From assembly GCA_007117035.1 (NCBI GenBank), contig SKHG01000018.1:1-60179 (forward strand): a stretch of DNA of 60,179 bases, given 5' to 3'. Shown here one piece after another: positions 639 through 44,566 of this stretch. Both the position numbers and the translations under genes were made by a program. The DNA comes from Candidatus Campbellbacteria bacterium. GTDB taxonomy: Bacteria; Patescibacteriota; Minisyncoccia; Phycocordibacterales; CSBR16-193. The notes beneath the pieces are model-generated. The model saw only the letters and a program-made list of their open reading frames with translations. It did no database searches and was not told the DNA's origin. How positions within the stretch are numbered: the first letter of the stretch is position 1; every line of letters begins with the position of its first letter.

Positions 639-1058
639 CTACTGTGCTGAAGCAGAGGATGAAGATCCAGAATTAGAACTGGAACTTCCGCCTGAGACAT
701 TCATACCTCGGAGACCGAGGCCTATTGGAATTCCTAGACCCGGACCTCTCATAATAGGATCAAGAATACCTGGGGTTTTCTCAGTTGTCCAACCTTGGAA
801 TTGAACATCCCCAGATTGATCATGTGTCCAAACGGACACAAGTGAGACGTCTCCCCTCCAGAGATTTTTTTGCTCCCAAGCCAAAACTTGTTGACCTGGT
901 TGGTGTGAAATCTCTCCTGTCTCATCATTCTGATGAGACAAGGACTGGAAGTTGACCCCTTGTGGCTCGAATGCTGTTTGCGAGTGAGTGGTGCAACCCA
1001 CCCCCACAAACAACATGATTGCTGACAAAATTGTCAGAATTATCAATTGTTTTTTCAT
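639..1058 (-). CDS. Orphan lipoprotein
   Basis: Start refined to MKKQLIILTILSAIMLFVGVG-C (SPII lipobox-like), preceded by AAAGGGAAACT; Gly-rich hydrophobic segment and Ser-rich C-tail. Confidence 0.7.
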   Translation of the reverse strand: MKKQLIILTILSAIMLFVGVGCTTHSQTAFEPQGVNFQSLSHQNDETGEISHQPGQQVLAWEQKNLWRGDVSLVSVWTHDQSGDVQFQGWTTEKTPGILDPIMRGPGLGIPIGLGLRGMNVSGGSSSSNSGSSSSASAQ

Positions 1059-1074
1059 AGTTTCCCTTTCTCTA

Positions 1075-1151
1075 GTTTTTTGTGTGGTGGATTCTGTGTA
1101 AAAGAACCCGTTAGCTAGCAGTAGAATACATAACAAAAAAGAATATGTCAA
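1075..1151 (-). repeat. Promoter/leader module copy 1 (TTGACA-17-TATTCT, GTTCTTTTACA, A-rich leader)
   Basis: 1099-1151 matches 7154-7206 at 47/53 nt; 1075-1094 matches 7131-7150 at 17/20 nt. Confidence 0.9.
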
Positions 1152-1169
1152 GGGTTTAAAATATTGAAG

Positions 1170-2033
1170 TTAGGATTTTATAAGCTTTTTTAGTCTATCA
1201 ATATTTCTCTTATCTGCTCCTTGATTATCAAATCCTGGGACCTCAGCAATAAATGGTAGTTTTTTGATTTTACGGTGATTTAAAATCAGACGAAAAACCT
1301 CTTTATTAACAAAACCTTCATTAATATTATCGTGTCTATCTCGCAACGCTCCTAGTTCGTCACGACTATCATTTATATGAATCACCTCAAGATTTTCTAA
1401 ACCAATCATTTTTTCAAAACCAAGCAAGAAATTATCTATTTTTTTCTTATTCGACAAATCAAATCCGGCTGCGTGTAGGTGACACGTATCCAGACAAACT
1501 TTTAGTCGAGGATTTTTTATATTTTTTATAATATAAGCAATCTCAGCTAAATCCATTCCAATCTTCCTCATTCCCATATTTTCGATAATTAAAAAAGTTT
1601 CTTTGGGTGTTTTATCTAAAACAATCTTTATATTTTTTAAAAGTAGTTTGTACCTATCTCGTTCTCTAAATGATACGTCTGAGTTTATATTTTTTTTTCC
1701 ATCTTTAAATGAACCGAGGTGGACTACAGTTCCTCTGACTCCAACCTTTCCAGCAGTCTTTAACTCTGAGACCAGCGAATTGATTGATTTCTGTTGGATC
1801 TCTGAACTACCAACAAGGTTTATTAAATACGATGCGTGGAAATATACTGATGAAATTTTATATTGGACACAAGCTTTTTTAAACTTTTGAATTTCTTCCG
1901 ACGACAGATTAGCTACTCGCCAACCGCGAGGTGAAGTCGAGAAGATTTGTAGACAGTTACCTCCAATCTCATGAACTCGACGAACTGCTTCCGAGTAACC
2001 CCCAGCAGTAGATACGTGTGCTCCAATTAACAT
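1170..2033 (-). CDS. nfo: Endonuclease IV (AP endonuclease)
   Basis: IGAHVS, QIF, HASYLINL, HLG, IENMG, CLDTCH, HINDS, DRH and E Zn-ligand motifs. Confidence 0.95.
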   Translation of the reverse strand: MLIGAHVSTAGGYSEAVRRVHEIGGNCLQIFSTSPRGWRVANLSSEEIQKFKKACVQYKISSVYFHASYLINLVGSSEIQQKSINSLVSELKTAGKVGVRGTVVHLGSFKDGKKNINSDVSFRERDRYKLLLKNIKIVLDKTPKETFLIIENMGMRKIGMDLAEIAYIIKNIKNPRLKVCLDTCHLHAAGFDLSNKKKIDNFLLGFEKMIGLENLEVIHINDSRDELGALRDRHDNINEGFVNKEVFRLILNHRKIKKLPFIAEVPGFDNQGADKRNIDRLKKLIKS

Positions 2034-2136
2034 ATATCAATATTCTAACATATTTCTTTATTTGATCTATCACAACCAAACTTCCAAAATATCTGTATTG
2101 TGGCTAGGACATTGTAATAGATAAAACTTGTGTGTG

Positions 2137-2209
2137 TGGACCATAGCGGGGTCGAACCGCTGACCTCGCCCATGCCATGGGCGCGCTCTACCAGCTGAGC
2201 TAATGGCCC
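2137..2209 (-). tRNA. tRNA-Ala(GGC)
   Basis: GGGCCATTAGCTCAGCTGGTAGAGCGCGCCCATGGCATGGGCGAGGTCAGCGGTTCGACCCCGCTATGGTCCA; cloverleaf, G3:U70 identity pair, CCA not encoded. Confidence 0.97.
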
Positions 2210-2398
2210 TAAATAATCTCTTTTTTAAATTATATTCTAGAACAGAAATCCTAACAAACATTTCTATCAACCACAAAATCTATATTACTTATTTTTTTAT
2301 AAATCAAAAAAGCCACATCTGTCAAAATACCTAAACCTCGTCATGCTTAATTTTTAATATATCAACCGAAAGGAGACTTAGATGAAAGTAAATTTTAT

Positions 2399-2938
2399 TT
2401 ATCGAACATCGTATGCCCAGTGCAAAAGAGCTTGGCGCTGTTTAGGACGACAACTCTCATCTCCTGGTCGACAGTTCTTCTCCACCTGAGCAAGATGTCG
2501 ATTCATCTGTCTCCAACGCTTTATTTGTCGCTCATCTTCTTCTGATAAACGTCTTCCAAGATAGTAGCGACAGTACCACTGAAACCAACCATGCGGATCA
2601 TTTTTTTGGTTAATCCAACCTTTAGAAATCCAAACCTCGAGCGACTGACTAGCCTGAAGACCAAAATAATTTAACTCAGCGTGTTTTTCTCCATCCTTGG
2701 AAAGAGCCACTCCATCAAACCAACTTTTGGGTAGATCATCAGGAATCAAACCATCTACTGCTATAAAATATGCTCCGCCGAATACTCCTAATGAGAGCAT
2801 ATCTTTTGGTGTAAGGGTTGGGTTAAACCCTTGTGCAAAATTCTTACCAACAGGTTCAGACAACTCATAAACATAATTTTTTTGAAATCTATCACTGTAT
2901 TTGATCTTCTGTGGGCGTTTGTTGTTTGAATTTTTCAT
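2399..2938 (-). CDS. Conserved protein of unknown function (TPxxMLxLGVFGG...WFQWYCRYYLGRR...RQALLHWAYD family)
   Basis: Trp/Tyr/Arg-rich motifs that look like a conserved family; I cannot assign a function. Confidence 0.75.
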   Translation of the reverse strand: MKNSNNKRPQKIKYSDRFQKNYVYELSEPVGKNFAQGFNPTLTPKDMLSLGVFGGAYFIAVDGLIPDDLPKSWFDGVALSKDGEKHAELNYFGLQASQSLEVWISKGWINQKNDPHGWFQWYCRYYLGRRLSEEDERQIKRWRQMNRHLAQVEKNCRPGDESCRPKQRQALLHWAYDVR

Positions 2939-2939
2939 A

Positions 2940-3386
2940 TTAAATGTGATGAGTAAGGTACCAAACCAGAAGTCCTAATGAACCCCACCAACCAATAAAA
3001 GATACCAGAAAACTAACCGTAATCAATTTTTGTAATTTTTGAGGCAACAACTCTTGCTCTCTCCCCTCTCTTTCCTGTTTTAAAATATACGGACTAACAT
3101 AAAAAGAAAGAAAACAACCGTTTATAATTAAAAACAGCACAATAACTATATGAGTTAATGGAATCCAAGTCAGCGGGTTATTTACATAAAAGAAGAAACC
3201 ACCAACTATTACCAAAGCTATACCAATCCAAATCAAAGGCTTGGTTACCTTATGTGCTCTGATTGTTGCTACGGTCCAGTAAGAAGACCGTCGAGCTAGA
3301 AAACCGTGTAAATCGATAACTGTTACTGCGCCCAGACCTAAAACAAAACCTGCTAAAAATATAAACAAAGCGATTGATGTTGTCAT
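2940..3386 (-). CDS. Four-TM membrane protein, unknown function
   Basis: Four hydrophobic segments; start refined to ATG 3386, which lies 7 nt after TGT-TAAAAT (leaderless pattern). Confidence 0.75.
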   Translation of the reverse strand: MTTSIALFIFLAGFVLGLGAVTVIDLHGFLARRSSYWTVATIRAHKVTKPLIWIGIALVIVGGFFFYVNNPLTWIPLTHIVIVLFLIINGCFLSFYVSPYILKQEREGREQELLPQKLQKLITVSFLVSFIGWWGSLGLLVWYLTHHI

Positions 3387-3473
3387 GGATATTATTTTAA
3401 CAGAAATCAATTTTTATTTCTTTAGTTCATTCAGATAAATAAACTAAATAAAAATATTAAACCCTTTACTCAT

Positions 3474-3504
3474 AAAAAACCACCTTACATAAATGTAAGG
3501 TGGT
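3474..3504 (-). terminator. Intrinsic terminator
   Basis: ACCACCTTACAT-AA-ATGTAAGGTGGT hairpin with an A-run on its left. Confidence 0.85.
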
Positions 3505-3520
3505 GTTCGTATTCGGTTAA

Positions 3521-3967
3521 TTATTTAAATTCATCGCATAGACCGATGTATAATCCAACAACAAGACCCATAAAAAGACATGTTGCTAAACCATAAATAA
3601 AACCCGAGAGAAAACAGGTGAAAACAATAGACATAACAAGACCGACAATAATTCCTAGAACAAGACCCCAAACAAAACCTCTAACAAGATTACTGATTAC
3701 ACCCTCCTCCTCAAATGAATTCAGTGGTTTGAAGATGTTTACTGTAATAATTATTACGATTCCGCTTACGACATAAGACAGGATCGGTATCAAAACCAAT
3801 CCAATCTGTGAGAGGGTCAAGTTTTTTGGCGTTAGATATTGCATACTATCTAAATATGAAATTAGGTATAGATTAATTTCAAACCAAAAAAAACAACCCG
3901 ATATTAAAACCACAAAACCTGTAAACAATCCAAGTGAATAACCTGGAACTCTAAGATTAGCTTTCAT
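3521..3967 (-). CDS. Orphan membrane protein with Gly-zipper-like (GLVxG) C-terminal helices
   Basis: Hydrophobic ORF with AAAAGGAGGAATA-ATG SD, its own promoter and its own terminator. Confidence 0.8.
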   Translation of the reverse strand: MKANLRVPGYSLGLFTGFVVLISGCFFWFEINLYLISYLDSMQYLTPKNLTLSQIGLVLIPILSYVVSGIVIIITVNIFKPLNSFEEEGVISNLVRGFVWGLVLGIIVGLVMSIVFTCFLSGFIYGLATCLFMGLVVGLYIGLCDEFK

Positions 3968-4011
3968 TATTCCTCCTTTTTTGTTTTTAAGAACACTCTA
4001 AGTCAAAAAAT

Positions 4012-4040
4012 ACAATAAGGTAAATTACTGCTAATGTCAA
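4012..4040 (-). promoter_or_regulatory. Sigma70 promoter of orphan 3521-3967
   Basis: TTGACA-17-TATTGT followed by GTTCTTAAAAAC and AGGAGG. Confidence 0.75.
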
Positions 4041-4126
4041 TCTGTCGTTATGGTTCAATAGGATTAATTTTAAAAACCTGCTTTACTTCCCACAAACAAG
4101 GTCTAAATAAATTAAATTCATTTTTT

Positions 4127-5350
4127 TCAGTCCACCTCACCGAAAGAAGGAATTGAGAATCTGGATTTTCTAAATTCTTTTTTATAATCTGAACTTTTCT
4201 TTAACCCTGAACACAGACCAACAACCCCTCTACCAAACCGAAGATTTAAATTATCTATTACTTTGAAAGGAAGACTTATTTCCTGGTGTCTTTCGTTAAA
4301 AAGAACCTGCTGTGTTGACTCTCTGTTTTCTAGACCTGAAAAAATTACACCTGTTGTTCGATACAAAACTCCACTCAAAAAAATACCGTCTAGAATAATG
4401 CGCGCCTGCACAACAGCTATATTGCTCGCATTAGACGGCTGAAAAAACTTAACCTCTTTTTCTTTGTATTTAAAAGTTTGAGTTTTTATAAACACAGACA
4501 TGCACTTGGCTCGAAGATTCATTCTACGAAGATCAAAAGTTGCTTTCTCAATGTGCTCTACTATTTCTTTTAGGAGAAAATCTTTGTTGGCACTAGGAAT
4601 AAAAGTCCTACTAGAACGAATTGATTTTCTAGGTGATAAATTTTCATTACCAAACGGAAAAACTTCTTGACCGTTTAACTCCTGCCATATCGTCTGAAGA
4701 GGTTTATAGAAATCTTTTTGTATTCTTCTAAAATCTTCTGAAACTAAATCAAAGGCATTACGCAAACCAACTTTTTCAAGTTTTTCTGCTGTCCTCTCTC
4801 CAATTCCCCAAACCTTGTTAAGAGGAGTAGCTTTTAAGTAATTTTCTCGATCCTGATCTTTCAAAAAAGTAAAACCGTCTGGTTTGCCCCAGTTAGACGC
4901 AATCTTAGCCAGAACCTTTGTTGATGCTAAACCAACAGAAACAGTAATACCCAACTCCTTTTTTATATCTGATTTTATATTAAAAACTGCACTCTTTACC
5001 TTTCTCTCGAAAAATAATTTACCTTTTTTAAAACGTATAAAAAATTCATCAATACTATACTCCTCTATCTCTTCTCCATACCGACGAGCAATGTCGAACA
5101 TTCTTCTTGAAAAAACCGTGTACAAAAAGAAATCAGAATGGACTACGATAACTTCCGGAAAAAGACGTCGGATTTGTGTAACAGGCATTCCTCTGGTAAC
5201 TCCTAAAACTTTAGCCTCTTTACTCATGGAGGACGCAATACCTCTTTCGGCACCAGTAATAACCGGTCGACTCTTTAAACTTGGATTGATAGACTGCTCA
5301 ACTGATGCAAAAAAAGAATCACCGTCGATATGACCTATGATGTGTGACAT
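4127..5350 (-). CDS. umuC: Y-family translesion DNA polymerase (UmuC/DinB type)
   Basis: HIDGDSFFASVEQ, YSIDE, K(V)LAKIAS, VWGIG motifs; UmuC-like C-tail (IDNLNLRFG); lies 2 nt downstream of the lexA/umuD-like gene. Confidence 0.85.
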   Translation of the reverse strand: MSHIIGHIDGDSFFASVEQSINPSLKSRPVITGAERGIASSMSKEAKVLGVTRGMPVTQIRRLFPEVIVVHSDFFLYTVFSRRMFDIARRYGEEIEEYSIDEFFIRFKKGKLFFERKVKSAVFNIKSDIKKELGITVSVGLASTKVLAKIASNWGKPDGFTFLKDQDRENYLKATPLNKVWGIGERTAEKLEKVGLRNAFDLVSEDFRRIQKDFYKPLQTIWQELNGQEVFPFGNENLSPRKSIRSSRTFIPSANKDFLLKEIVEHIEKATFDLRRMNLRAKCMSVFIKTQTFKYKEKEVKFFQPSNASNIAVVQARIILDGIFLSGVLYRTTGVIFSGLENRESTQQVLFNERHQEISLPFKVIDNLNLRFGRGVVGLCSGLKKSSDYKKEFRKSRFSIPSFGEVD

Positions 5351-5352
5351 GA

Positions 5353-5937
5353 TTATTTGTATTTTCTAATAACCCCAACAACAACAGCAGAAATTTCAAG
5401 ACTCTCTTTCGGATAAATAGGTTTATACTTTTTGTTTGCTGGTTCCAAAAAACTAATCCCGTCTTTCTTTCTTAAATATTTCATTGTCCACTTTCCGTCA
5501 ATTTCAGCGATAACAATACTACCTTCTTTTGGAGTCTTACCTCTTTCAACAACAACAATATCACCTTGCTGTATACCGGCGTCCTTCATAGAATCACCTG
5601 TCACCTTTAGGATAAAACTTGCCTCCCGATTCTCAACCAACCATTCGTCTAGAGTAATAGTATCCAAGAACTGCTCTTCGGCTGATCCTGGAAATCCAGC
5701 CTCAATAGTACCGAGAACTTTGAGTTGACCGAAAAGATTTGTTGGTATGATCCTACCTGTTTTATCTTGTGATATTACACCATCATTAACCAAACTCTTA
5801 ACTAATTTATAAACAGTATTTTTAGATTTAAAACCTAAAAGATTACCTAACTCCGAAAAACTTGGCATTCTTTTTCTTTTTTTATAAAAACCCCTCAATA
5901 TTAAAAGTGTATTTTTATTTTTAATAATTCCAGTCAT
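5353..5937 (-). CDS. lexA: LexA-family repressor with UmuD-like S24 peptidase domain
   Basis: N-terminal wHTH (MPSFSELGNLLGFKSKNTVYKLV), AG cleavage site (IEAGFP), catalytic Ser (GDSM) and Lys (WTMKYL). Confidence 0.9.
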   Translation of the reverse strand: MTGIIKNKNTLLILRGFYKKRKRMPSFSELGNLLGFKSKNTVYKLVKSLVNDGVISQDKTGRIIPTNLFGQLKVLGTIEAGFPGSAEEQFLDTITLDEWLVENREASFILKVTGDSMKDAGIQQGDIVVVERGKTPKEGSIVIAEIDGKWTMKYLRKKDGISFLEPANKKYKPIYPKESLEISAVVVGVIRKYK

Positions 5938-5943
5938 TCTTAA

Positions 5944-5972
5944 AGTATAGTAAACGAACGTTCACCTGTCCA
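5944..5972 (-). promoter_or_regulatory. lexA-umuC promoter with candidate SOS operator in the spacer
   Basis: TGGACA-17-TATACT, ATG 6 nt downstream; GAAC-GTTC-GTTT (GAAC-N4-GTTY) at 5952-5963. Confidence 0.7.
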
Positions 5973-6045
5973 CTCGATTTCAATAAATGGCCGAACGATT
6001 ATCCTATTCCACAATAAGAAAGAGTGTTTTGTGTCATAAATATAA

Positions 6046-6077
6046 AAACCCTACCGTATAAAATACAGTAGGGTTTG
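6046..6077 (-). terminator. Intrinsic terminator
   Basis: AAACCCTACCGTAT-AAAA-ATACAGTAGGGTTT hairpin (one mismatch). Confidence 0.7.
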
Positions 6078-6130
6078 ATGTCTCAGTTTTTTAACATAAA
6101 TTCTGAGAAAGATTTGCACTCCTCCCAAAT

Positions 6131-6388
6131 TTAAATTAAAGGTTTTAGAACTGAGTCATTAGTGTAATGAGCTGTGAGATCTCTTCCGGTCAATAAAAAC
6201 TTAACAGAAAATGTCTCTTCTATCTCATCCAACCTCTCCTTATGAGAAGCTAAATAGAGCGCGACTGATTCATAAATATCAATATTTTTTAAATGATAAG
6301 TATGGTGGCCTGATTGATTATTGTATATCTCATTAGCCAATTCATGTAGTAGAATTTCTACCACATCAATGTTTACATCTTTATTCAT
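6131..6388 (-). CDS. Small orphan protein (85 aa)
   Basis: ATAGGAGGAATT-ATG SD; downstream terminator; GTTCTTTTACA in leader (about 6503-6516). Confidence 0.75.
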   Translation of the reverse strand: MNKDVNIDVVEILLHELANEIYNNQSGHHTYHLKNIDIYESVALYLASHKERLDEIEETFSVKFLLTGRDLTAHYTNDSVLKPLI

Positions 6389-6631
6389 AATTCCTCCTAT
6401 TTAATTTGAGAAGTCTGTTGGGTTAACATAAATAAGAAAACAATAAACTACATTGTTTCATCTTTATTTTTTGGACCATATCATGACCCAAAACAGACCT
6501 TTGTGTAAAAGAACAAAACCCCAACCTGATTATTAGTCGGGGCAACAATGTTAAAATTATATAGTATTTTTCATATAAGTAAAGACCCTGAACTTAAACT
6601 AACTTTTCTATCTGCTTTTATTAATAATAAA

Positions 6632-6657
6632 AAAGAGTGTTGCAAGCAACACTCTTT
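6632..6657 (-). terminator. Intrinsic terminator
   Basis: AAAGAGTGTTGC-AA-GCAACACTCTTT perfect inverted repeat with an A-run on its left. Confidence 0.85.
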
Positions 6658-6673
6658 GTTTTAAAAAACCAAA

Positions 6674-7111
6674 TTAAATTCCTCCCCCGCCAAAAATGGC
6701 TTTGAGAGTTAAGAAAAGGTCTTTATTTGATTGTTCAAAAATAACAACTTTCCAGCCTTGTCGAACTCCAATTGAGACATCAGGACGCCTCGCATCAGGA
6801 AATTCGTCCCTTATCATTTCCCAGAAGATGCTGTCTAGTACGCTCATCTGGTTACTCATTTTTTGAATCTCAATCATCAGTGACAGAGAATCATCTCCAG
6901 AAACAACAAAAAGGTTCCTTTTTAGATCCTCAAATTTCTTCTTACTAGATTCTTTGAAATAAAGAATCCGTGAATACACTGTTTTGGTTCTTTGATTCTG
7001 CAGGATCCCAAGAACAGTTTCTTCTGGATTAACTTCTTTCCTCGGTTCACTAAGTGCTTCAAACTTTCCAGAAAAAATGTCTTCCAGGTGTTTTTCTAAT
7101 TCTTCAACCAT
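6674..7111 (-). CDS. Orphan cytoplasmic protein (145 aa; FWxxIRxEF...IGVRxGWKVV motif)
   Basis: AATAGGAGGTAATT-ATG SD, own promoter module and terminator. Confidence 0.8.
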   Translation of the reverse strand: MVEELEKHLEDIFSGKFEALSEPRKEVNPEETVLGILQNQRTKTVYSRILYFKESSKKKFEDLKRNLFVVSGDDSLSLMIEIQKMSNQMSVLDSIFWEMIRDEFPDARRPDVSIGVRQGWKVVIFEQSNKDLFLTLKAIFGGGGI

Positions 7112-7130
7112 AATTACCTCCTATTTTTTT

Positions 7131-7206
7131 GTTTTTTGTTTGATGAATTCCTTTAAAAGAACTCGTTAACTAACAGTAGAATGCCTAACAAAAAAGAATC
7201 TGTCAA
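7131..7206 (-). repeat. Promoter/leader module copy 2 (TTGACA-17-CATTCT, GTTCTTTTAAA)
   Basis: Near-identical to 1075-1151. Confidence 0.9.
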
Positions 7207-7493
7207 TAGTTCCGTAATATCCCAATAGCTTGGAAAAAGCAAAAAATAAAACCCAAGTATGTTGCATATACAAATCTCAAAAAACAGAAAGAAGTTTGTT
7301 TCTGTTTAGTGACGAACAAACAAACCAAAAAATCATAAAAAGTCTTACTTTTTCCTTTGTAAATCACTACTTTAAAAGTGATCTGGGTTTTGCAGAAAGG
7401 ATAAAATATGTATAATAGGGACTTGTATATTATTATATTTTCATTTTATCCAAACAAGCTTTAAAAATATTCAACGTCAGACATACATATAAT

Positions 7494-9269
7494 ATGAATA
7501 AAGAGAACAGTTTAGGAATCATCACTCGTGTAAGTGGTCCGTTGGTTGAGGCTCGAGGACTCTCAAATGCCAGGATGTATGAAGTGGTCAAGGTCTCAAA
7601 ACACAAACTTCTAGGTGAAATTATAGAACTTAATAATGATAAGGCTTCTATTCAGGTATACGAAGAAACTTCAGGTATTGCTCCTGGTGAACCTGTAGAG
7701 TTAACCGGGCAAACCATGTCAGTTGAATTAGCTCCTGGACTACTTGAATCTATCTACGACGGAATTCAAAGACCGTTAAAAAAAATTGAGGAGATTTCCA
7801 AGAGTCAATATATTACACGCGGAATTGAAACAGATGCTATTGACCTAGAAAGAAAATGGGAATTTAAACCAACCTCTAAAGAACAAACTGAGGTTCAAGG
7901 TGGTGATATTTTAGGTGAGGTACAGGAAACCGAAACTATTACTCACCGAATAATGGTTCCACCAAACATTTCGGGAACTTTAATCTCAGTCAAGTCTAAA
8001 GGAAATTACACAGTTAAAGAACCGATAGCAATTATTAAAACCAAGGATGGAAAAGAAAAAGATATTTCAATGCTACAGTATTGGCCTATTCGAACTCCTC
8101 GACCTAAAAAAGAAAAAATATTCCCTACCGAACCTTTAATTACTGGTGTTCGAATTATCGACAGTCTATTCCCAGTAGCTAAAGGTGGTGCAGCATCGAT
8201 TCCAGGTCCATTTGGTTCGGGTAAAAGCGTAACCCAGCAATCACTAGCAAAGTACTGTGATGCTCAGGTTATTATCTACATAGGTTGTGGTGAACGCGGA
8301 AACGAAATGACTGAGGCTCTAAATGAATTTCCAGAACTACTTGATCCAAACACAGGACAGTCATTAATGAAAAGAACCGTCCTTATTGCCAACACCTCAA
8401 ACATGCCTGTTGCAGCTCGTGAAGCTAGCGTCTACACAGGTATTACTATCGCCGAGTACTACCGAGACATGGGTTACTCCGTAGCCTTGATGGCTGACTC
8501 AACTTCGCGTTGGGCTGAAGCTATGAGAGAAATGTCTGGACGAATGGAGGAGATGCCAGGTGAAGAAGGTTATCCAGCCTATCTGGCTTCTCGAGTCTCA
8601 GAGTTTTATGAAAGAGCGGGTAAAGTAACCTGTATTGGTACTGACGAGAGACAAGGGGCACTTTCTGTAATAGGAGCAGTTTCACCCCCTGGAGGAGATC
8701 TCTCCGAACCAGTTTCTCAAGCCACCTTTAGAGTCACTAAATGTTTTTGGAGTCTAGACGCTTCAATTGCCTACCGAAAGCATTTTCCCGCTATCAACTG
8801 GCTAAACTCATACTCTCTATACATTGATAACATCAAAGATTATTGGGCTAAAAATGTCTCACCAGATTTCTGTCAAATCAGATCTGAAGCTATGGACATT
8901 CTTCAGCAAGAAGCAAAGTTGCTTGAGATTGTTCGGTTAGTTGGAATGGAAGCTCTTTCTGGATATGAAAAACTGATTCTAGAAATCGCCCGATCTATTC
9001 GAGAGGATTTTCTTTTTCAGAACGCTTTTGACCCAGATGATGCTTACACTCCCCTAATAATTCAGTACGAAATTTTGCGTTCAATCATCCACCTCTACCA
9101 CGAACTAAAACCTGAGAGTGAAAACCGGGAAAGAGATTTTTCAGACCTTTCTGGAATTAGTTCATTTGGCAAACTACCTGAACTAAAAAATTACAAAGAA
9201 GTAAAGGAGTTTGAAGATTTTAGAAACATAGTTACAGCTGAGGTTAAATCCTTGCCAGTGATTTCTTAA
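7494..9269 (+). CDS. ntpA: V/A-type ATPase catalytic subunit A
   Basis: GPFGSGKS P-loop, [29 protein letters not shown]; non-homologous insert typical of V-type A; no intein. Confidence 0.97.
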
Positions 9270-9279
9270 CAATAAAATT

Positions 9280-10707
9280 ATGAAAGAAAGTTCTCAAACA
9301 GAAAACAAAACAAATCTTGTAGATAAGTCATATAAAACTCTAGAATCTATTGCTGGTCCAATCATTATTGTCTCTGGAGTAAAAGGAGTTGGTTATGAAG
9401 AACTGGTAGAGATATCAATTCCAGGCGAAGAACAACCTAGGTTAGGTAAAGTTTTGGATGCACTGGAAGATCGTGCGGTAGTCCAAATGTTCAGCCAAAC
9501 TTCTGGTGCCCAACTAAAAGACTCTAAGGCTCGTTTTAGAGGTGAAATAGAGACTATCGGTCTTTCTAAAAACATTTTAGGTCGAATTTTCTCTGGACAA
9601 GGTAAAGCAATCGATGGAGGTGCAGAAATGGTTGCCGAAACTAGACGACCAATTCAAGGTGCTTCTATAAACCCATGGAGTAGACAGTATCCAGACGACT
9701 TTATTCAGACCGGAATATCTTCTATCGATATTATGAATACCTTAGTTCGTGGACAGAAACTACCAATCTTCTCGGGCTCTGGTCTACCACACGCCAAACT
9801 AGCAGCTCAAATTGCCAGACAAGCTAAAGTAGCTATCAAAGACTCCAACGATGGTTCCTCTGGAAACTTTGCGATTGTCTTTGCAACTATGGGTGTAACG
9901 TTTGACGAGGCAGAATTTTTCCGTAAAGAGTTTGAAGAGACTGGTGCTCTCAAAAGATCGGTGTTGTTTCTGAACACTGCAGCTGACTCTGTAGTTGAAC
10001 GAATTGCTACTCCACGAATGGCTTTGACCACTGCTGAATATCTAGCTTTTGAACACAACATGCATGTCTTGGTTATCATGACCGATATGACCAACTACTG
10101 CGAAGCTTTGCGAGAAGTTTCCTCAGCCAGAAAAGAGGTTCCAGGCAGACGTGGTTACCCAGGATATATGTATACCGACTTAGCTTCACTTTACGAGCGA
10201 GCAGGAAGGGTCAAAGGAAAAGAAGGTACCATTACTCAGATTCCAATACTCTCAATGCCTGATGACGACAAAACTCACCCTATTCCCGATTTAACTGGAT
10301 ACATTACAGAAGGTCAGTTTATTATCTCCCGAGAGCTAAACACCAAAGGTATTTTTCCACCAGTAGATGTTCAAGGTTCACTTTCTAGACTTTGGTCAGC
10401 TGGAGTAGGAGAAGGAAAAACCAGAGAGGATCACTCTGCACTAAAAGATCAGCTGTTTGCTTCTTATGCTGTCGGTAAGGACGCTAGAGATTTGGCTGTA
10501 GTTTTAGGTGAGTCTTCCCTTTCCGAAAGTGATAAAGCACATATGAAATTTGCTGAAGATTTTGAAGGAAAGTTTGTTAAACAAGGAGAAAGAGAAAATC
10601 GTGAAGTTACAGAATCTTTAGACCTAGGCTGGTCTTTACTAAAAATGCTTCCACGGGAATCACTAAAGAGAGTTAAGTCAGATTTAATTGATAAATATCT
10701 AAAATAA
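9280..10707 (+). CDS. ntpB: V/A-type ATPase subunit B
   Basis: [44 protein letters not shown]. Confidence 0.97.
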
Positions 10708-10741
10708 AAATTACACGACTCTATCTTCTGAAAATAATTAT

Positions 10742-11362
10742 ATGCAAAAAGTTAGTCCAACTAGAATTAACCTCCTTTCATTGAAAAAGGAACTGAAAAC
10801 AGCTGAGAAAGGATACAAACTCCTGAAAGACAAAAGGGACGGTTTGATTAAGAAATTTATGGAGATTATCAAAGAGACTCGTGATCTTCGTTCAGAGGTT
10901 GAAGAAGAGATTCCTAGAACATTAGTCTCATACATTCGAGCTTCGGCTTCAATAGCAGAAAAGATTAATGAAGCGGCTTTTTTGGTTCCAAACGCTGAAT
11001 TAGAAATAGATGTCAAAACACGATACATAATGTCAGTTCCAATTCCACATTTTGATATAAAAACAAAAGGTCGTGCTTTTTCCTATGGCTTCCTAGAAAC
11101 TAGTGGAGAGTTAGATAACTCAGTTCAAAGAATTGAAAAAATTCTTCCCAAACTCCTACACCTATCAGAACTAGAAAAGACAGTAGAAAATCTAGCAGAA
11201 GAAATCGAAAGAACTCGTCGTCGCACCAGTGCATTAGAAAATGTTAGGATTCCACAACTTAATGTGTCGATTCGATATATCAGAGAACATCTCGACGAAC
11301 AGGCTCGTGATGCAATAGTTAGCACCATGAGAATCAAAGCTATGATTATGGCAAAAGAATAA
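10742..11362 (+). CDS. ntpD: V/A-type ATPase subunit D (central stalk)
   Basis: PTRINL...KGYKLLKDKRDGL, EIERTRRRTSALE. Confidence 0.93.
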   Translation: MQKVSPTRINLLSLKKELKTAEKGYKLLKDKRDGLIKKFMEIIKETRDLRSEVEEEIPRTLVSYIRASASIAEKINEAAFLVPNAELEIDVKTRYIMSVPIPHFDIKTKGRAFSYGFLETSGELDNSVQRIEKILPKLLHLSELEKTVENLAEEIERTRRRTSALENVRIPQLNVSIRYIREHLDEQARDAIVSTMRIKAMIMAKE

Positions 11363-11367
11363 TTTGC

Positions 11368-12096: not shown

Positions 12097-12287
12097 AGTG
12101 TAATATTTAAATAAATTTATAACAAACACTGCACATCATACTGAAATAAGTAGATAGTGACAAATCGCAAGCTGTGGAAAGATGGGCTCTACAAAATATA
12201 TTTTCTGCTTCCGACAAACTGTCTTTTATGATAAGATACTCGCTGTAATTAAATATAGTCTCGTAAGAGAAATTTAGATAATCAAAA

Positions 12288-12602
12288 ATGACCTACATAA
12301 AAACAATATTAAAAACTGAAAGAGAAGCTCTGTCCATAAAGGAAAAAACTGACAAAAAAGCCAAAACAATTCTTGAGCAAAAAAAGGTTCAGTTGGACAA
12401 AGAACTAGAGGACTTTCAAAAAAATCTATTGGTAGAAAGAGGAGAAGAACTCGCAAACCAAAAAAACCGCCTCAAAAAGATATATACCGAAATTATTGAA
12501 GTTGGTAAAAAGCAAAAAAATAAGATGCAGACTACTCTAAACTCAAACAAGGAGAAGTCTGTTAGTTTTATTTTAGAAAAAATAAATCAGAATAATCAAT
12601 GA
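12288..12602 (+). CDS. V/A-type ATPase peripheral stalk subunit G/H
   Basis: 104-aa charged coiled coil overlapping the start of subunit I (ATGA); canonical first position in the operon. Confidence 0.7.
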   Translation: MTYIKTILKTEREALSIKEKTDKKAKTILEQKKVQLDKELEDFQKNLLVERGEELANQKNRLKKIYTEIIEVGKKQKNKMQTTLNSNKEKSVSFILEKINQNNQ

Positions 12603-14533: not shown

Positions 14534-14601
14534 TCCGCGATCAGATCCGCGGGTTTGTTAGTTAAGCTTAATTATTCGTTTATTCAATCAATTATTTAAA
14601 T

Positions 14602-15081: not shown

Positions 15082-15095
15082 GAAATTATAAATTT

Positions 15096-15674: not shown

Positions 15675-15679
15675 AAATT

Positions 15680-17164: not shown

Positions 17165-17174
17165 CCCAAATACA

Positions 17175-21487: not shown

Positions 21488-21557
21488 TAAGATAATTATA
21501 GCAAGCAATTAAAAATTATAAAACCCGAACAGGTGTTCATATTTATCTTAAACAAAT

Positions 21558-38244: not shown

Positions 38245-38289
38245 AGTATACAGACTACTTCTTTTTTGTCAACCGTAATTTTATCCACA
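38245..38289 (-). promoter_or_regulatory. rpoB promoter with adjacent consensus DnaA box
   Basis: TTGACA-16-TATACT (38272-38245, minus strand); TTATCCACA at 38281-38289. Confidence 0.6.
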
Positions 38290-40105: not shown

Positions 40106-42043
40106 ATGAGTAATAAAAACAAAAACAAAGATTCTCTTAATAGTAGTAAATCCAAAACCTTTAGTGGAGTAATCTCTATCTCTGCTCGTGGTGTTGGATA
40201 CCTTCCCACTACTGAGTTTGAAAAAGATATTAAAATTGAAGAACACGATCTAAACACAGCATTACCTGATGATGAAGTTGAAGTTAGTCTTTTGGCAAAG
40301 AAAAAAGAACTTCTCGGACAGGTTGTGGGTATAAAAAAAAGAGCTAGAGAAACTATTGTTGGGGTTATCGAGAAAAAAGGTAATGTTTGTTTTGTTCTGC
40401 CAGACAACAATCGCTTTTATAGAGACATCCTGATTCCAGAACCACCTAAGGATATAGAAGACGGACACAAAGCGGTTGTTAAGTTTCTACGATGGGACGA
40501 TCCTAAAAAGAATCCAGAAGGACAGATACTGAGGATTCTAGGACTGTCTGGAGAACACGAGGTTGAGATGAACTCAATCATTATTGAAAAAGGTTTTGAA
40601 GTTGATTTTCCGGAAACAGTTGAAAAAGAGGCTCGCAAACTTAAAGAACAAAACACTCCTATTCCACAAAAAGAAATTGAGAGTCGCAGAGATCTACGTG
40701 AGACAACTACTCTAACCATTGATCCAGAAACTGCTAAAGATTTTGACGATGCCCTTTCCTTTAAGGACCTTGGTGATGACAAGTTCGAGATTGGGATTCA
40801 CATTGCCGACGTTGCACACTTCGTGACTGAAGGGTCTGCTATTGATAAAGAAGCTCGTCGTCGCGGGACATCAGTCTATTTAGTAGACCGAACTATTCCG
40901 ATGCTACCAGAGGTCTTATCTAATGACCTTTGTAGTTTAAATCCTGGCGAAGATAAACTAGCCTTTTCAGCTGTTTTCCAATTAAATCGTAAAGGAGAAG
41001 TTTTGGAGAAATATTTTGATCGAACCCTGATACGTTCAGACAAACGTTTTAGTTACAAAGAAGCCGAGGAAGAGATGAAATTAGGAGGAAAATATCAAAC
41101 TGAAATAAAAACACTAAACGAAATAGCAAAAGAACTTCGCAAGAAAAAATCAAGTATGGGGGCAATAGAGTTTGAAAGTGATGAGGTTGCTTTCGAACTA
41201 GACGAAAAAGGTGTGCCAACCCGAGTCTATATAAAAGAGCACTTAGAAACCCACAAACTTATTGAGGAATTTATGTTGCTAGCTAATCGTGAGGTTGCAA
41301 TGTTTCTAGATGATAAAGTCAAAAAACAAAAAGCGATCTATCGTATACACGAAAAACCAAACCCAGATAAACTTGAAGAACTTTTTATTTTTCTAAAAGC
41401 TTTGGGACACGAATTCAATATTAAACCGGATCAGATAACACCTAGAGACATTAATAAAATTTTAGATAGGGTCGAAGGTTGTGACGAGGAACCTTTGGTA
41501 AAGACTGCAACTTTACGTAGTATGTCCAAAGCTATTTACTCTACTAAAAACATCGGACATTTCGGTCTAGCCTTCCGACACTACACTCATTTTACATCTC
41601 CAATACGTCGGTACCCAGATCTAATAGTTCACCGTCTGCTTTGGAAAAAAATTCATAATCAAAAACTAAAACAGGATATAACAGCTACTCTAAAAGCCAT
41701 CTCTCAAGAATCTACAGAAAAAGAAATCAGAGCAACCGAGGCTGAACGAGAGTCGATTAGGATGAAACAAGTTGAGTTTATGGAAAACCATATCGGCCAA
41801 ACTTTTGATGCAGTCATCTCAGGTGTAACAACATGGGGTCTTTTTGTTGAGGAACTCAGTACACTCTCGAACGGTATGATTCGTATCTCAAACATCGGAG
41901 ACGAGTACTTTGAACTTGATGAGAAAAATTACCGACTGATTGGCCAAAAAACTAAAACTACCTACTCTTTAGGACAAAAGGTTAAGGTGAAACTAACAGA
42001 TGCTAATTCGCAACAGAGACAACTGAATTTTGTTTTTGCGTAG
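40106..42043 (+). CDS. rnr: Ribonuclease R
   Basis: TIDPETAKDFDDA, HIADV, IEEFMLLAN, HFTSPIRRYPDL, C-terminal S1 domain; start refined to MSNK, 6 nt after TGG-TACAGT. Confidence 0.95.
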   Translation: MSNKNKNKDSLNSSKSKTFSGVISISARGVGYLPTTEFEKDIKIEEHDLNTALPDDEVEVSLLAKKKELLGQVVGIKKRARETIVGVIEKKGNVCFVLPDNNRFYRDILIPEPPKDIEDGHKAVVKFLRWDDPKKNPEGQILRILGLSGEHEVEMNSIIIEKGFEVDFPETVEKEARKLKEQNTPIPQKEIESRRDLRETTTLTIDPETAKDFDDALSFKDLGDDKFEIGIHIADVAHFVTEGSAIDKEARRRGTSVYLVDRTIPMLPEVLSNDLCSLNPGEDKLAFSAVFQLNRKGEVLEKYFDRTLIRSDKRFSYKEAEEEMKLGGKYQTEIKTLNEIAKELRKKKSSMGAIEFESDEVAFELDEKGVPTRVYIKEHLETHKLIEEFMLLANREVAMFLDDKVKKQKAIYRIHEKPNPDKLEELFIFLKALGHEFNIKPDQITPRDINKILDRVEGCDEEPLVKTATLRSMSKAIYSTKNIGHFGLAFRHYTHFTSPIRRYPDLIVHRLLWKKIHNQKLKQDITATLKAISQESTEKEIRATEAERESIRMKQVEFMENHIGQTFDAVISGVTTWGLFVEELSTLSNGMIRISNIGDEYFELDEKNYRLIGQKTKTTYSLGQKVKVKLTDANSQQRQLNFVFA

Positions 42044-42241
42044 AAAAAATTAAAAATATAAAATCTTGCTTTCCATACCAAACATAGTGAATTTTTTAGT
42101 CCAAACTGTCTCTACTTAGTTCACAACACTATTATTAATTTGAATCGAAATATTTGACACGCATTGTATATTATTATATAGTTGTGAAAGGAAATCAAAG
42201 AATACTTCTTTGACAAATCAATACAAAACAAGGAGGTCATT

Positions 42242-43570
42242 ATGACAACAATATTCATATTAGTAGCTGTAGCTACTTTAATTTATGCAGGATTATCTTT
42301 AGTGGTGATCCTCTTTTTAGCCAAAAGAGGTATATACTTCACTCGAATCGAAAAAGGTAATACTGTGTTCATAAACCGAGGAGATGACATGAGGGTTATC
42401 TGGCCAAATGTAGGCGGGTACCGAATGTCAAGTGATTCGGATCTCGATGGTCGACACTGGTTGATCAAAGATGATGATGAAGAAAAAAGAAATAAGGCGT
42501 TCTTTTATGGGGCTATGTGTGGAACTGTGTGGTTCCAAAAATGGCTCTGGGAGACATTCGGTATTCGTTTTATTTCATGGTTCTGGCCTAACACCAGGGT
42601 TCACACCTTTGGAATAGATCGGAAGAGATATCGAGATAAATCTTCCTCGACTAAAGAGACTCCTCTTAGTGACAGAGTTATTGTTTCTCCGGAATGTCCA
42701 GAAGTCTCTTCACTGAGAGTTATAGTTCCTAGACCTATATACATGTCGGAACTTGAACTACCTGGAGATAACTCCAAAATAAATCTCGTCATTTTGCCGA
42801 CTTTTTGGCAAGTTATACCCTCAATTCCAGTGTACTATTACAAAGGGGACTTCTTCCCTTTCATAGACGCTGCTATCGAGGCTACGATGATCGATTTTGT
42901 GGCAACTCACCGAGTAGCAGTCACAGAAGAAGGTGAATTCCATTCAGATGACTGGAATGCGTTGGGAGATGAAGACAAAAAGAAATACTTCCCAGCTCCA
43001 CTGAACTTCTTTCACTGGATGAAGATTGGAAAAGGTGAAGGTTCAGTAATTGAAAAACGTTTTCGGAACCTTAACGCTAGTAGAAGTTTCTACAACAAAG
43101 TAAGAAGGAAAAAAGGAAATGACGGAAAAAAATCAGAGATATTTAAGGAACTTGAGAGAATAACTCACGGGAAACCGCCTGAAATCTCTGGAAATATAAA
43201 GGGAGAAATCCCACACGGTATCATTCCTCGTTTTGGGTTTTCTTTAGTTAGCATTAAGCTTGCTGACTGGGAAGCTCACGAAGACACTCAAAAACTTGGT
43301 GAGGCTATCCTTACGAAACAGACCGAGCTACACAAAGCCGAAGGTACCCGCCAGGAGGCTATGGGTACTCGAGATGCAATCAAACTGAAAGCATCAGCTG
43401 AATCCGATCGGATTAACATGATTATGCAAAAATTAATCGACCAAGGTGTTCCGGCGGATGAAGCAAACCGAACCGTTCAAGTTATTCTTGAGATGGAGAA
43501 TCTGAAAGAATGGAGCGGTAAGACCTATGTAAGAGGAGGTGGTGGTGTGATGGTCCAAGACACTAACTAA
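42242..43570 (+). CDS. SPFH/band-7-like membrane protein (divergent)
   Basis: N-terminal TM, RFGFSLVSIKLADWE then AEG/EA coiled coil typical of SPFH C-termini; TTGACA-17-TATAGT promoter and AAGGAGG SD. Confidence 0.6.
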   Translation: MTTIFILVAVATLIYAGLSLVVILFLAKRGIYFTRIEKGNTVFINRGDDMRVIWPNVGGYRMSSDSDLDGRHWLIKDDDEEKRNKAFFYGAMCGTVWFQKWLWETFGIRFISWFWPNTRVHTFGIDRKRYRDKSSSTKETPLSDRVIVSPECPEVSSLRVIVPRPIYMSELELPGDNSKINLVILPTFWQVIPSIPVYYYKGDFFPFIDAAIEATMIDFVATHRVAVTEEGEFHSDDWNALGDEDKKKYFPAPLNFFHWMKIGKGEGSVIEKRFRNLNASRSFYNKVRRKKGNDGKKSEIFKELERITHGKPPEISGNIKGEIPHGIIPRFGFSLVSIKLADWEAHEDTQKLGEAILTKQTELHKAEGTRQEAMGTRDAIKLKASAESDRINMIMQKLIDQGVPADEANRTVQVILEMENLKEWSGKTYVRGGGGVMVQDTN

Positions 43571-43590
43571 ACCATCTTGTTCTTTACAAG

Positions 43591-43623
43591 CCGGTATCGC
43601 AATTATGCGATACCGGTTTTTTT
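43591..43623 (+). terminator. Intrinsic terminator
   Basis: CCGGTATCGCA-ATTA-TGCGATACCGG-TTTTTTT. Confidence 0.92.
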
Positions 43624-43787
43624 ATTAAAATTTAAATATGTTCTGTGACATTTCAGTAGTCATTAACTACTAATGTATCAAAAGTATCAGAAGTATTTAA
43701 ACATTAAACAATAAATTTGACTTTTCCTATAATCTGTACTATTGTGTTTACAGGATCAACTAACAACAAAAGAAAGGAGTTCTTTAA

Positions 43788-44528
43788 ATGGAAGAAAAAA
43801 AAGAAAGTCAAAAAGAGATCACAAAAAAACAGAGTAAGAACATTAATGGAAGTATCTGGGTTACACTTATTCTAGCGATATCATTTTTTCTATTGGTGTT
43901 CGGACTGACTATATTAATTAAATACCTAGCTGGTTCCACGGGTGTTTTGATAACCCTTGGAAACATGAAAACAGTTCTTGTAGTACTTATAGCACTACCT
44001 TTAGTGATAGCTGTTATAACCCTACTTGGTCTAGCTTTTAAAAAAAAGTCAGAAAACTCAGACTCGAATAAAAAACCCTCAGGGGTAAATAATTCATCTG
44101 ACCCTGTGAGGAAAACTATGCTTGGACTACTAACAATAGCCTTCATAGCTTCAATTGGTTGGATTACAGTCACAACCTTTCGAGGTCTAGCATCAGCCGC
44201 AGCCAGTGCTGGAGCGAGTGTTGTTGAGGCCCGAGAAGAGCGTCGAGCTTCTCTCAGGCAACAAGCAACCAGAGAAAGATTAGTCTCTGTACCAGCTACA
44301 GGGTGGAGCGAAACGATTGGAATTCCATCTAGACATGAATTCCGTTTCTTCGTAAGCGGTAAGGTTGAGGTTCAACCTTTAGGTGACGGCCATATGTTAA
44401 GGAAAGTAACGGTCGCACCAGACACAACATATTTTGAGTTCCCGCGTGGATTTAAAACTATGGGTTTCCGGTTCCGTTCTTTAACAGGTCAAGAAGAAGA
44501 AGTCTTGTTCGAGATCGAAAGGAGGTAA
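43788..44528 (+). CDS. Orphan three-TM protein with C-terminal beta-rich domain
   Basis: TTGACT-17-TATTGT promoter, AAAGGAG SD, three hydrophobic segments. Confidence 0.75.
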   Translation: MEEKKESQKEITKKQSKNINGSIWVTLILAISFFLLVFGLTILIKYLAGSTGVLITLGNMKTVLVVLIALPLVIAVITLLGLAFKKKSENSDSNKKPSGVNNSSDPVRKTMLGLLTIAFIASIGWITVTTFRGLASAAASAGASVVEAREERRASLRQQATRERLVSVPATGWSETIGIPSRHEFRFFVSGKVEVQPLGDGHMLRKVTVAPDTTYFEFPRGFKTMGFRFRSLTGQEEEVLFEIERR

Positions 44529-44532
44529 ACAC

Positions 44533-44566
44533 AAAGCGCGAGGGTTTTAACCCTCGCGCTTTTTTT
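44533..44566. terminator. Intrinsic (likely bidirectional) terminator
   Basis: AAAGCGCGAGGG-TTTTAA-CCCTCGCGCTTT followed by a T-run, between convergent genes. Confidence 0.9.

Follow-up and report, generated by a model that had tools for sequence, protein, structure and literature searches.

A 60,179-nt stretch of contig SKHG01000018.1 (called the window here) is a chromosome segment of an uncultured Paceibacteria bacterium (Parcubacteria, Candidate Phyla Radiation or CPR) with a GC content of ~36%. It matches ENA ERZ27301260 contig k141_1240016 (106 kb) and begins ~20 nt from the end of that contig. Six of its genes, designated c1 (639-1058), c2 (3521-3967), c3 (6131-6388), c4 (6674-7111), c5 (42242-43570), and c6 (43788-44528), each have a promoter and a terminator of their own together with a Shine-Dalgarno (SD) sequence, which is strong in all except c1. 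A partial gene at the edge of the window, c0 (1-355), can be added to the set with less certainty. Genes c0-c4 are on the (-) strand; c5 and c6 are on the (+) strand. The original prediction saw in these genes a class of portable, orphan "expression cassettes" that had been acquired or shuffled by some route and that might represent an undescribed system. The analysis presented here leads to a plainer reading: the six units are probably ordinary, native, single-gene transcription units that form the SD-dependent minority of SD-poor Paceibacteria, and not a new mobile element.

Promoters are given below as the -35 hexamer, the spacer length, and the -10 hexamer; each terminator is a GC-rich hairpin and U-tract located after the stop codon. 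The c1 unit (598-1151) begins with TTGACA-17-TATTCT (1151-1123), followed by a leader with a predicted 5' hairpin (1109-1089) that contains GTTCTTTTACA, an A/C tract, and a weak SD consisting of GAAAGGGAAA only. Its coding sequence (1058-639) specifies a protein of 139 amino acids (aa) with a lipoprotein-like signal peptide, and its terminator is at 626-598. In the c2 unit (3479-4040), the promoter TTGACA-17-TATTGT (4040-4012) is followed by GTTCTTAAAAACA, an AGGAGG (3977-3972), the coding sequence of a 148-aa multi-pass membrane protein (3967-3521), and a hairpin that can serve as a terminator in both directions (3504-3479). The c4 unit (6632-7206) has the promoter TTGACA-17-CATTCT (7206-7178), a predicted 5' hairpin (7164-7145) containing GTTCTTTTAAA, an A-rich tract, an AGGAGG (7122-7117), the coding sequence of a soluble 145-aa protein (7111-6674), and a terminator at 6657-6632. 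A single-sequence AlphaFold2 (AF2) model of this protein was unusable, with a predicted local distance difference test score (pLDDT) of 47.7.

The c3 unit (6046-6583) starts from a weaker promoter, TTTACT-16-TATAAT (6583-6556). Its leader of ~150 nt contains a terminator-like hairpin (6543-6518) and, directly after it, GTTCTTTTACACA, 13 nt identical to c1; an AGGAGG (6398-6393), the coding sequence of a small soluble 85-aa protein (6388-6131), and a terminator (6076-6046) complete the unit. The hairpin at 6518-6543 on the (-) strand has a 9-bp GC-rich stem and a U-tract. It is located 90 nt past the c4 terminator and immediately downstream of the weak c3 promoter, and it may act as an additional c4 terminator, as an attenuator, or as a 5' stabilizer of the c3 mRNA. 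An Rfam search of 5900-7500 at E ≤ 1 yields chance-level matches only, with no significant match for the c3 leader. The partial c0 unit (1-427), whose coding sequence (355-1) is cut by the end of the window and contig, has TTGACA (427-422)-18-TAAGTT (403-398), a weak SD-like GAAGGG, and a product with an N-terminal membrane anchor. Upstream of the c0 promoter, the c1-c0 intergenic region (484-599) contains four or five copies of a decamer resembling ATAAAGGACA, which could be protein-binding sites.

On the (+) strand, the c5 unit (42154-43619) consists of the promoter TTGACA-17-TATAGT (42154-42182), a 5' hairpin at ~42195-42213 with CTTCTTTGACAAA, an AGGAGG (42231-42236), the coding sequence (42242-43570), and a terminator (43588-43619). 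The c6 unit (43717-44562) follows with TTGACT-17-TATTGT (43717-43745), a leader with an A/C tract, the SD AAGGAG (43774-43779), GTTCTTTAA between this SD and the ATG, the coding sequence of a 246-aa membrane protein (43788-44528), and a terminator (44533-44562).

These signals were evaluated in a list of 58 open reading frames (ORFs), the upstream and downstream regions of each being inspected. The strict promoter form TTGACA-N17-YANNNT has four matches in the whole window, all of them upstream of c1, c2, c4, and c5. Together with that of c6, these promoters score 9-11 of 12 and fit the predicted form TTGAC(A/T)-17-(T/C)AnnnT, with c3 weaker, as had been noted. Likewise, the window's six strongest terminator hairpins (stems of 11-14 bp) are exactly those after c1-c6, and the A/C-rich tract that had been described is borne out by an A+C content of 0.69 in the cassette leaders versus 0.50 upstream of core genes (p = 0.004). 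In their first 40 nt, the predicted 5' untranslated regions (UTRs) are somewhat more structured than shuffled sequences (mean z = -0.79, p = 0.006, n = 24), which fits 5' stabilizer hairpins as a frequent, not a universal, element.

The promoter type is shared with core genes. The rpoB promoter, TTGACA-16-TATACT (38245-38272, (-) strand), scores 11/12 and precedes a leader of ~130 nt without an SD; the rpsA (S1) promoter, again TTGACA-16-TATACT (52692-52719, (+) strand; 11/12), precedes a leader of ~100 nt, also without an SD. Those of khpA (39439-39411) and lexA (5972-5944) are as good as or better than those of the cassettes, and these genes have no SD either. Since the window also contains rpoD (28125-29450, (-) strand), encoding a full-length primary sigma-70 with Regions 1.1-4, and since consensus promoters are present at rpoB, rpsA, and khpA, TTGACA/TATAAT is the organism's own sigma-70 promoter type and the cassette promoters are native. 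Thus, the claim that the cassettes have a grammar different from that of the core genes holds for the combination of SD, A/C leader, 5' hairpin, and strong terminator, which is absent from core genes, but not for the promoter.

An SD of the form AGGAG(G) is found 5-9 nt before the ATG in five of the 58 genes, namely c2, c3, c4, c5, and c6, all within the originally predicted set, and 4-5-mer SDs are absent from all of the ~52 other genes in the window; the description of core genes without an SD and of five perfect SDs among six cassettes, c1 being weak, is therefore accurate. The SDs of c2-c6 also fit complementarity to a canonical anti-SD at 5-10 nt from the start, and that of c1 does so weakly. 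The number of AGGAGG sequences in the window is not raised (25 versus 22 expected); what is non-random is their position. At core genes, the frequency of G at positions -15 to -5 is 0.085, compared with 0.18 genome-wide, and the start context is marked by A at -8 (0.70) and T at -1 (0.63). In many core genes a TAT(A/T)(A/T)T abuts the ATG (for example, at 7494, 39023, 47079, and 52825); it has the look of a start context that is independent of the SD and specific to the lineage, not of a promoter. Leaderless starts are plausible at lexA, rpsP, rpsU, and the gene for V-type ATPase (V-ATPase) subunit E. The rpsU gene (56689-56937), which encodes bS21, is preceded by ttgacttggactatggtatcttaaattctt and has no SD.

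Two of the cassettes have related upstream regions. The sequences before c1 and c4 are homologous for ~95 nt, from the -35 hexamer to the ATG, with 47/53 positions identical across the promoter and the first part of the leader and a local alignment score of 93 versus a maximum of 27 in 500 shuffles. The proteins are unrelated, and so are the terminators. For the common part, a hairpin of 7-8 bp is predicted, with a GTTCTTT motif as its 5' arm and one compensatory change from G-C to A-U. A third copy of the module is found neither in the 70 kb of contig examined nor in ~160 loci from relatives nor in viral contigs. These features point to a local duplication of an expression module before two different lineage-specific genes, and they constitute the sole evidence for the "shuffling" in the original prediction; the duplicated module is a form of it, while acquisition and portability find no such backing. 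The GTTCTTT motif itself had been assigned to all of the cassettes. Clear copies are present in the leaders of c1, c3, and c4; in c2 and c5 the motif is degenerate, and the c6 copy is located downstream of the SD, before the ATG. In the window, GTTCTTTWA occurs 10 times versus 4.5 expected, and three of the copies are those in the c1, c3, and c4 leaders, within ~400 nt of cassette leader. It is best regarded as a genome-local leader motif.

The c5/c6 pair can be followed outside of this genome. The c5 product (442 aa) has an N-terminal transmembrane helix, an SPFH domain, and a long coiled coil. In an exhaustive HMMER search, its homologs number 186 at the level of cluster representatives, with E-values below 1e-30 for 51 of these, and a word-indexed search finds 62 close proteins, assigned by name to Kaiserbacteria, Vogelbacteria, Minisyncoccia, and Paceibacterota. 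While c5 itself has no Pfam match, distant members of its family match Pfam Band_7 (E = 1e-6 and 4e-4), and the family profile matches HflC (2.8e-4), prohibitin (3.6e-3), QmcA, and stomatin in the Protein Data Bank. The AF2 model (pLDDT 93.4, predicted template modeling score 0.82) has helices at 2-29 and 347-400, and Foldseek relates it with a probability of 1.0 to prohibitin, HflK/C, stomatin, erlin, and the major vault protein; flotillin is also matched. The extended shape of the protein keeps the template modeling scores of these matches modest (0.2-0.5). On the basis of its modeled fold, c5 is a divergent, prohibitin-like membrane scaffold of the SPFH family. For c6, PADLOC gives a weak match in a transmembrane region only, and PHROG gives none.

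The genomic context of six c5 homologs with 40-49% identity, from genomes of 48-56% GC, shows that the pair is conserved as such. In all six relatives, the c5 homolog is followed, at the position of c6, by a 208-285-aa membrane protein without Pfam domains. The window and the six genomes share the order c5 homolog, c6-like gene, convergent array of type IV secretion system (T4SS) pilin genes, solute-binding protein gene, and methyltransferase gene, and in Kaiserbacteria the upstream side also contains rpoB and trmD-khpA-rpsP as in the window. Among the c6-like proteins, similarities are weak and chained (L164 to L170, 1e-10; L167 to L171, 1e-6; L170 to c6, 2e-4, where L-numbers denote loci fetched from related genomes, ~160 in all); these proteins look like fast-evolving positional orthologs. 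The signals are kept as well. In the relatives' loci, SDs precede 6/6 c5 homologs and 5/6 c6-like genes versus 3/56 neighbors, and TTGAC(A/T)-N17-TAnnnT promoters with leaders of 60-90 nt precede c5 homologs and c6-like genes. Since both the signals and the synteny are kept in six other genomes, the cassette grammar at this locus is old and vertically inherited. That SDs are conserved and correctly spaced on orthologous genes in seven genomes argues that something reads them. The portability originally proposed is thus contradicted at c5/c6 by syntenic conservation in six Paceibacteria genomes, and of the "orphan" set, c1 and c4 are indeed singletons, while c5, with its 186 representatives, is not an orphan and c6, with its positional orthologs, is a doubtful one.

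In the window, the pilin array (44588-47082, (-) strand) consists of six tandem paralogs of the TrbC/VirB2-like T4SS pilin, followed by the solute-binding protein and methyltransferase genes. Equivalent arrays are present in L164, L167, L169, L170, and L171, and an array lies beside c5/c6 in all of the Paceibacteria loci examined.

For the smaller cassette proteins, the searches give nothing comparable. Among 5.8 billion proteins, searches with c1 and c4 return only themselves. Neither Pfam nor PHROG nor PADLOC gives a match for c1-c4, tblastn of phage sequences with c2 and c4 gives none, and tblastn with c0-c6 in 163 fetched loci finds the source contig as the sole match. No synteny of the c1-c4 region is apparent in the nearest relatives, such as L083; these are distant (≤72% identity in V-ATPase subunit A, or 43% in DinB) and have only the V-ATPase operon in common with the window. 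The GC content of c1 is 46% versus 36.5%, and of all genes in the window c1 and c6 deviate most in codon usage, while the composition of c2, c3, and c4 is genome-typical. Codon usage was set aside as evidence for horizontal transfer since it does not discriminate: c5 and c6, which are vertically inherited, are themselves among the genes that deviate most, and the preference for NNC codons is confounded by strand.

The ~160 loci of related genomes indicate how widely this architecture is used. A 5-mer SD at positions -17 to -4 precedes 334/2279 genes versus ~40/2279 in control windows, the former number being somewhat inflated by allowing a choice among the first five start codons; SDs thus appear to be used by a minority of genes in the lineage. 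A leadered TTGACA promoter is present at 35/328 genes with an SD and at 57/1951 genes without one. Genes with both an SD and a TTGACA promoter have a homolog in another locus in 4/35 cases versus 1144/1894 for the others, and this holds in all length classes, although the proxy is crude and undercounts conservation, c5 itself scoring as non-conserved. A check with Pfam gives a milder difference, ~8-9/29 of the SD-plus-promoter genes having a domain versus at least 13/29 of length-matched neighbors. The relatives' SD-plus-promoter set includes an amidohydrolase, an ABC transporter, a GDSL lipase, and a LexA-like protein, and L162, a locus from the source contig that extends past the end of the window (window coordinate = L162 coordinate + 48737), contains a decarboxylase-aminotransferase operon with the same layout of promoter, hairpin, A-tract, and terminator. 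Consequently, the suspected enrichment in orphan genes is seen as an enrichment in poorly conserved genes, and the grammar, which annotated enzymes carry too, is not orphan-specific. The idea that cassette-type genes mainly encode membrane proteins was rejected (36% versus 33% in relatives). In several unrelated genomes (L004, L009, and L016), leaders with an SD and a promoter contain TGGCAGA(A/C)T ~5-8 nt downstream of the -10 hexamer, which may be a conserved transcription-start context.

Signs of mobility were sought and are lacking. In a repeat search of 1-7600 and 41900-44700, the c1/c4 promoter module and palindromes at the terminators are the sole matches, with no flanking direct or inverted repeats; Pfam and NCBIfam scans and precomputed Pfam assignments find no integrase, transposase, or recombinase in the window, in agreement with the original observation that no integrase or att repeats are visible. 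No cassette has a PHROG match, c2 and c4 have no phage match, and the c1/c4 module is absent from viral contigs. Two stretches of L162, located ~0.7-4.8 kb beyond the end of the window, look different. At L162:12185-12506, a 32-nt exact duplication of a tRNA-Val 3' end flanks a 79-aa GIY-YIG gene, and at L162:13193-15255, a 22-nt exact duplication of a tRNA-Glu 3' end flanks 2,041 bp of inserted DNA, whose 511-aa gene has neither a Pfam match nor an SD; both are likely to be small integrated elements. The finding that real insertions nearby leave scars of tRNA ends, and that the 511-aa gene lacks the cassette grammar, counts against mobility of the cassettes. With no att, integrase, phage, or defense signature, with c5/c6 syntenic, and with a native promoter, the idea of a portable or mobile class is not supported, and nothing has been found that requires an undescribed system.

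These observations suggest how the units may work. Each combines a sigma-70 promoter of the organism's own type with a short leader, often with a small 5' hairpin, an unstructured A/C stretch, a strong SD, and a strong intrinsic terminator, in a host in which ~90% of the genes do without an SD in translation initiation and use upstream regions poor in G and rich in A/T, or possibly leaderless mRNAs, instead. The cassettes would most likely be genes that need high or separately controlled output, the SDs presumably pairing with an anti-SD and the 5' hairpins perhaps stabilizing the mRNAs. SPFH scaffolds in known cases form large, multi-copy cages; by analogy, c5 is plausibly a high-abundance product. 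Within the set, c5 and c6 are an old, vertically inherited pair whose SDs and promoter have been kept across the class, and c1-c4 are lineage-specific small proteins, two of which (c1 and c4) have received the same promoter-UTR module by local duplication.

Several points weigh against this reading. "Highly expressed" is a suggestion drawn from the strength of the signals, and "high expression" alone is no explanation for the poor conservation of SD-plus-promoter genes in relatives. Among Parcubacteria, just 48% were found to have a CCTCCT anti-SD (Tsurumaki et al. 2022, PMC9297842), so that SD/anti-SD pairing in this organism is presumptive; a 16S rRNA 3' end is found neither in the window nor in any fetched locus. 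The core genes rpoB, rpsA, and khpA have leaders and work without an SD, and the presence of a leader therefore does not account for the SD. The deviant GC content and codon usage of c1 could indicate a foreign origin of this gene, and, because c1-c4 have no homologs, their vertical descent cannot be demonstrated.

Two alternatives concern the origin of the smaller cassettes and the leader motif. In one, c0-c4 (but not c5/c6) would be recently acquired or shuffled, moron-like portable units whose signals came from an SD-using donor or a mobile element. The singleton status of c1 and c4, the composition of c1, the single promoter-UTR module before two unrelated proteins, the lack of synteny around c1-c4, and the enrichment of the grammar in non-conserved genes of relatives would all suit such an origin. 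We nevertheless regard it as unlikely, since flanking repeats, integrases, and transposases are missing, as are phage, PHROG, PADLOC, and viral-contig matches; c2, c3, and c4 have a composition typical of the genome; the promoter type is native; an identical grammar is demonstrably vertical at c5/c6; and true insertions nearby carry tRNA-end duplications, the one checked being without this grammar. Presence/absence comparison offers little leverage here, the nearest relatives (≤72% identity in V-ATPase subunit A) being too distant for it. The other alternative concerns the GTTCTTT motif, which could be a BoxA-like site for NusB/NusE that places the cassettes under antitermination or translational control by Nus factors, as for suhB and others in gamma-proteobacteria. 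BoxA has the consensus GYTCTTTAANA in gamma-proteobacteria (PMC5725501); it is matched at 10/11 positions in c1 and c3 (GTTCTTTTACA) and in c4 (GTTCTTTTAAA) and at 9/11 in c5 (CTTCTTTGACA). In c1, c4, and c5, the distance from the motif to the start codon is ~37-51 nt; the motif is enriched as described above, and similar GTTnTTTGACAA motifs are located at -43 and -44 in L170 (the gene after the c5 homolog) and L164 (the c6-like leader). However, none of 29 cassette-type leaders in relatives carries the motif, c1 and c4 share a duplicated leader and are not independent, the predicted hairpin of which the motif is the 5' arm in both would hide a single-stranded BoxA, and the c6 copy lies between SD and ATG. 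Neither an rRNA operon or leader nor nusB is available for comparison in the window or the fetched loci, and it is hard to see what antitermination would serve on genes as short as 0.3-1.3 kb with strong terminators at their ends. BoxA is thus a minor possibility, and the least probable of the alternatives.

A third alternative places the cassettes in a specialized-translation regulon. Here the ribosome would ordinarily ignore SDs because its anti-SD is hidden, and the few SD-led mRNAs (those of the SPFH operon and of the lineage-specific small proteins) would be left to a particular sub-population or state of the ribosome, which would make the SD a regulatory "switch" and not a measure of strength. 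Genome-wide depletion of SDs and A-rich, G-poor starts resemble those of Bacteroidia (PMC7797042, PMC9976891, PMC13000453); the SD is kept on the same orthologs at ~45% amino-acid identity while the neighbors have none; leadered core genes do not need it; and bS21 is encoded in the window. However, the hallmark of Bacteroidia, a strong SD on rpsU, is absent, and strong promoters and terminators suit simple high expression equally well. We consider this regulon improbable, if somewhat less so than recent acquisition. Its broader form is held with equal reserve: Paceibacteria might have two initiation regimes, a conserved SD-led set (c5/c6 and fast-evolving, lineage-specific proteins) being read by a distinct ribosome state, with new lineage-specific genes gaining expression through copies of a promoter/5' UTR/SD module, as c1 and c4 would have done. 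Such a scheme may extend to lineages reported to be without a canonical anti-SD. The reading preferred here as the most economical is that of native, separately terminated genes with an SD-dependent start and probably strong expression, in a lineage whose initiation is for the most part independent of the SD.

In the remainder of the window, domain scans identify, in addition to rpoB and rpoC, whose products have only 1069 and 1218 aa, genes for a UvrD/PD-(D/E)XK helicase and RNase R, nfo, lexA-dinB, trmD, khpA, rpsP, gyrA, rpsA, pth, a signal peptidase gene, the bS21 gene, ybeY, ftsA, ftsZ, dnaG, ddl, uvrC, and hisS. A complete V-ATPase operon (7494-16985; A, B, D, then I, c, E, C, F) is split by an archaeal-type UMP kinase gene, pyrH (11368-12129), in the opposite orientation, a layout also seen in L083, the closest relative. 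The best matches of DinB among 185,579 species genomes are metagenome-assembled genomes of Paceibacterota/Parcubacteria (≤43% identity); relatives of V-ATPase subunit A in metagenomes reach 72%. At gathering threshold, Rfam reports one tRNA in the window and nothing else. ARAGORN calls a tRNA-Ala(GGC) at 2136-2209 on the (-) strand, just downstream of a TTGTTA-17-TATAAT promoter (2257-2229); it is missed by the Rfam tRNA model at this threshold and may be divergent. A strong 14-bp terminator-like hairpin (56984-57019, (+) strand) lies just after rpsU and overlaps the called start of ybeY (56961); it may be an attenuator, or the true start of ybeY may be a different one. LexA control of the cassettes was considered and rejected: SOS-box-like GAAC-N4-GTTC sites are found at the lexA promoter (5952-5967, inside the promoter) and at 21527-21538, not at the cassettes. 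The latter palindrome is ~20 nt upstream of an 81-aa ORF without a Pfam match (21263-21508, (-) strand), a candidate SOS-regulated small gene.

For annotation, the consequence is that these are ordinary native genes and that there is no need to postulate a new mobile system. The interest of the locus is modest and lies in selective SD use in a CPR lineage, in the duplicated module of c1 and c4, and in the SPFH-like family near T4SS pilins. A CPR/Paceibacteria genome that is SD-poor nevertheless has perfect SDs on a few genes, and at c5/c6 they are conserved across the class; this bears on the report that many Parcubacteria have no detectable anti-SD and provides a gene set for the study of selective SD use outside of Bacteroidia. 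The analysis also identifies an uncharacterized, Pfam-less, SPFH-like family that is constantly linked to Paceibacteria T4SS pilin arrays. Gene callers that rely on the SD will assign wrong starts to most genes in such genomes, and the SD-led minority can be used as anchors.

In their parts, the units resemble several known systems. Classical high-expression units with 5' stabilizer hairpins are exemplified by the leaders of E. coli ompA and B. subtilis aprE, and the cassettes share with them a consensus sigma-70 promoter, a 5'-proximal stem-loop, an unstructured leader, a strong SD, a terminator, and the single gene. However, E. coli and B. subtilis have an SD on most genes, whereas the architecture here is confined to ~10% of genes and is known from sequence. 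Like phage morons, c1-c6 are small genes of unknown function, with their own promoter and terminator, that lie between core genes; unlike morons, they are on a bacterial chromosome, have no phage homologs, and, in the case of c5/c6, occupy a position conserved across the class. Integron cassettes are usually promoterless, and they differ further in that neither attC/att sites nor an integrase are found here.

The closest precedent for near-absence of the SD, with a conserved SD on a few genes, is found in the Bacteroidia. In these bacteria the anti-SD is sequestered by bS21, bS18, and bS6, and rpsU carries an SD, as in Flavobacterium johnsoniae (PMC7797042, PMC9976891, PMC13000453). The window is alike in that nearly all genes lack an SD, start regions are A-rich and G-poor, a few strong SDs are conserved, and bS21 is encoded. 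It differs in belonging to a CPR phylum and in the identity of its SD-led genes, which form an SPFH operon or encode small proteins specific to the lineage; since rpsU has no SD, membership in the Bacteroidia scheme fails on its defining feature. Among SPFH scaffolds (stomatin, prohibitin, flotillin, and HflK/C), c5 has the familiar N-terminal helix, SPFH-like domain, long helix, and fold. As in systems in which an SPFH protein has an NfeD-type partner, such as QmcA-YbbJ, a small membrane protein is always encoded alongside. Unlike in QmcA-YbbJ, however, the partner gene comes after and not before the SPFH gene, there is no NfeD match, and c5 is very divergent; a further difference is the constant linkage of c5 to a T4SS pilin array.

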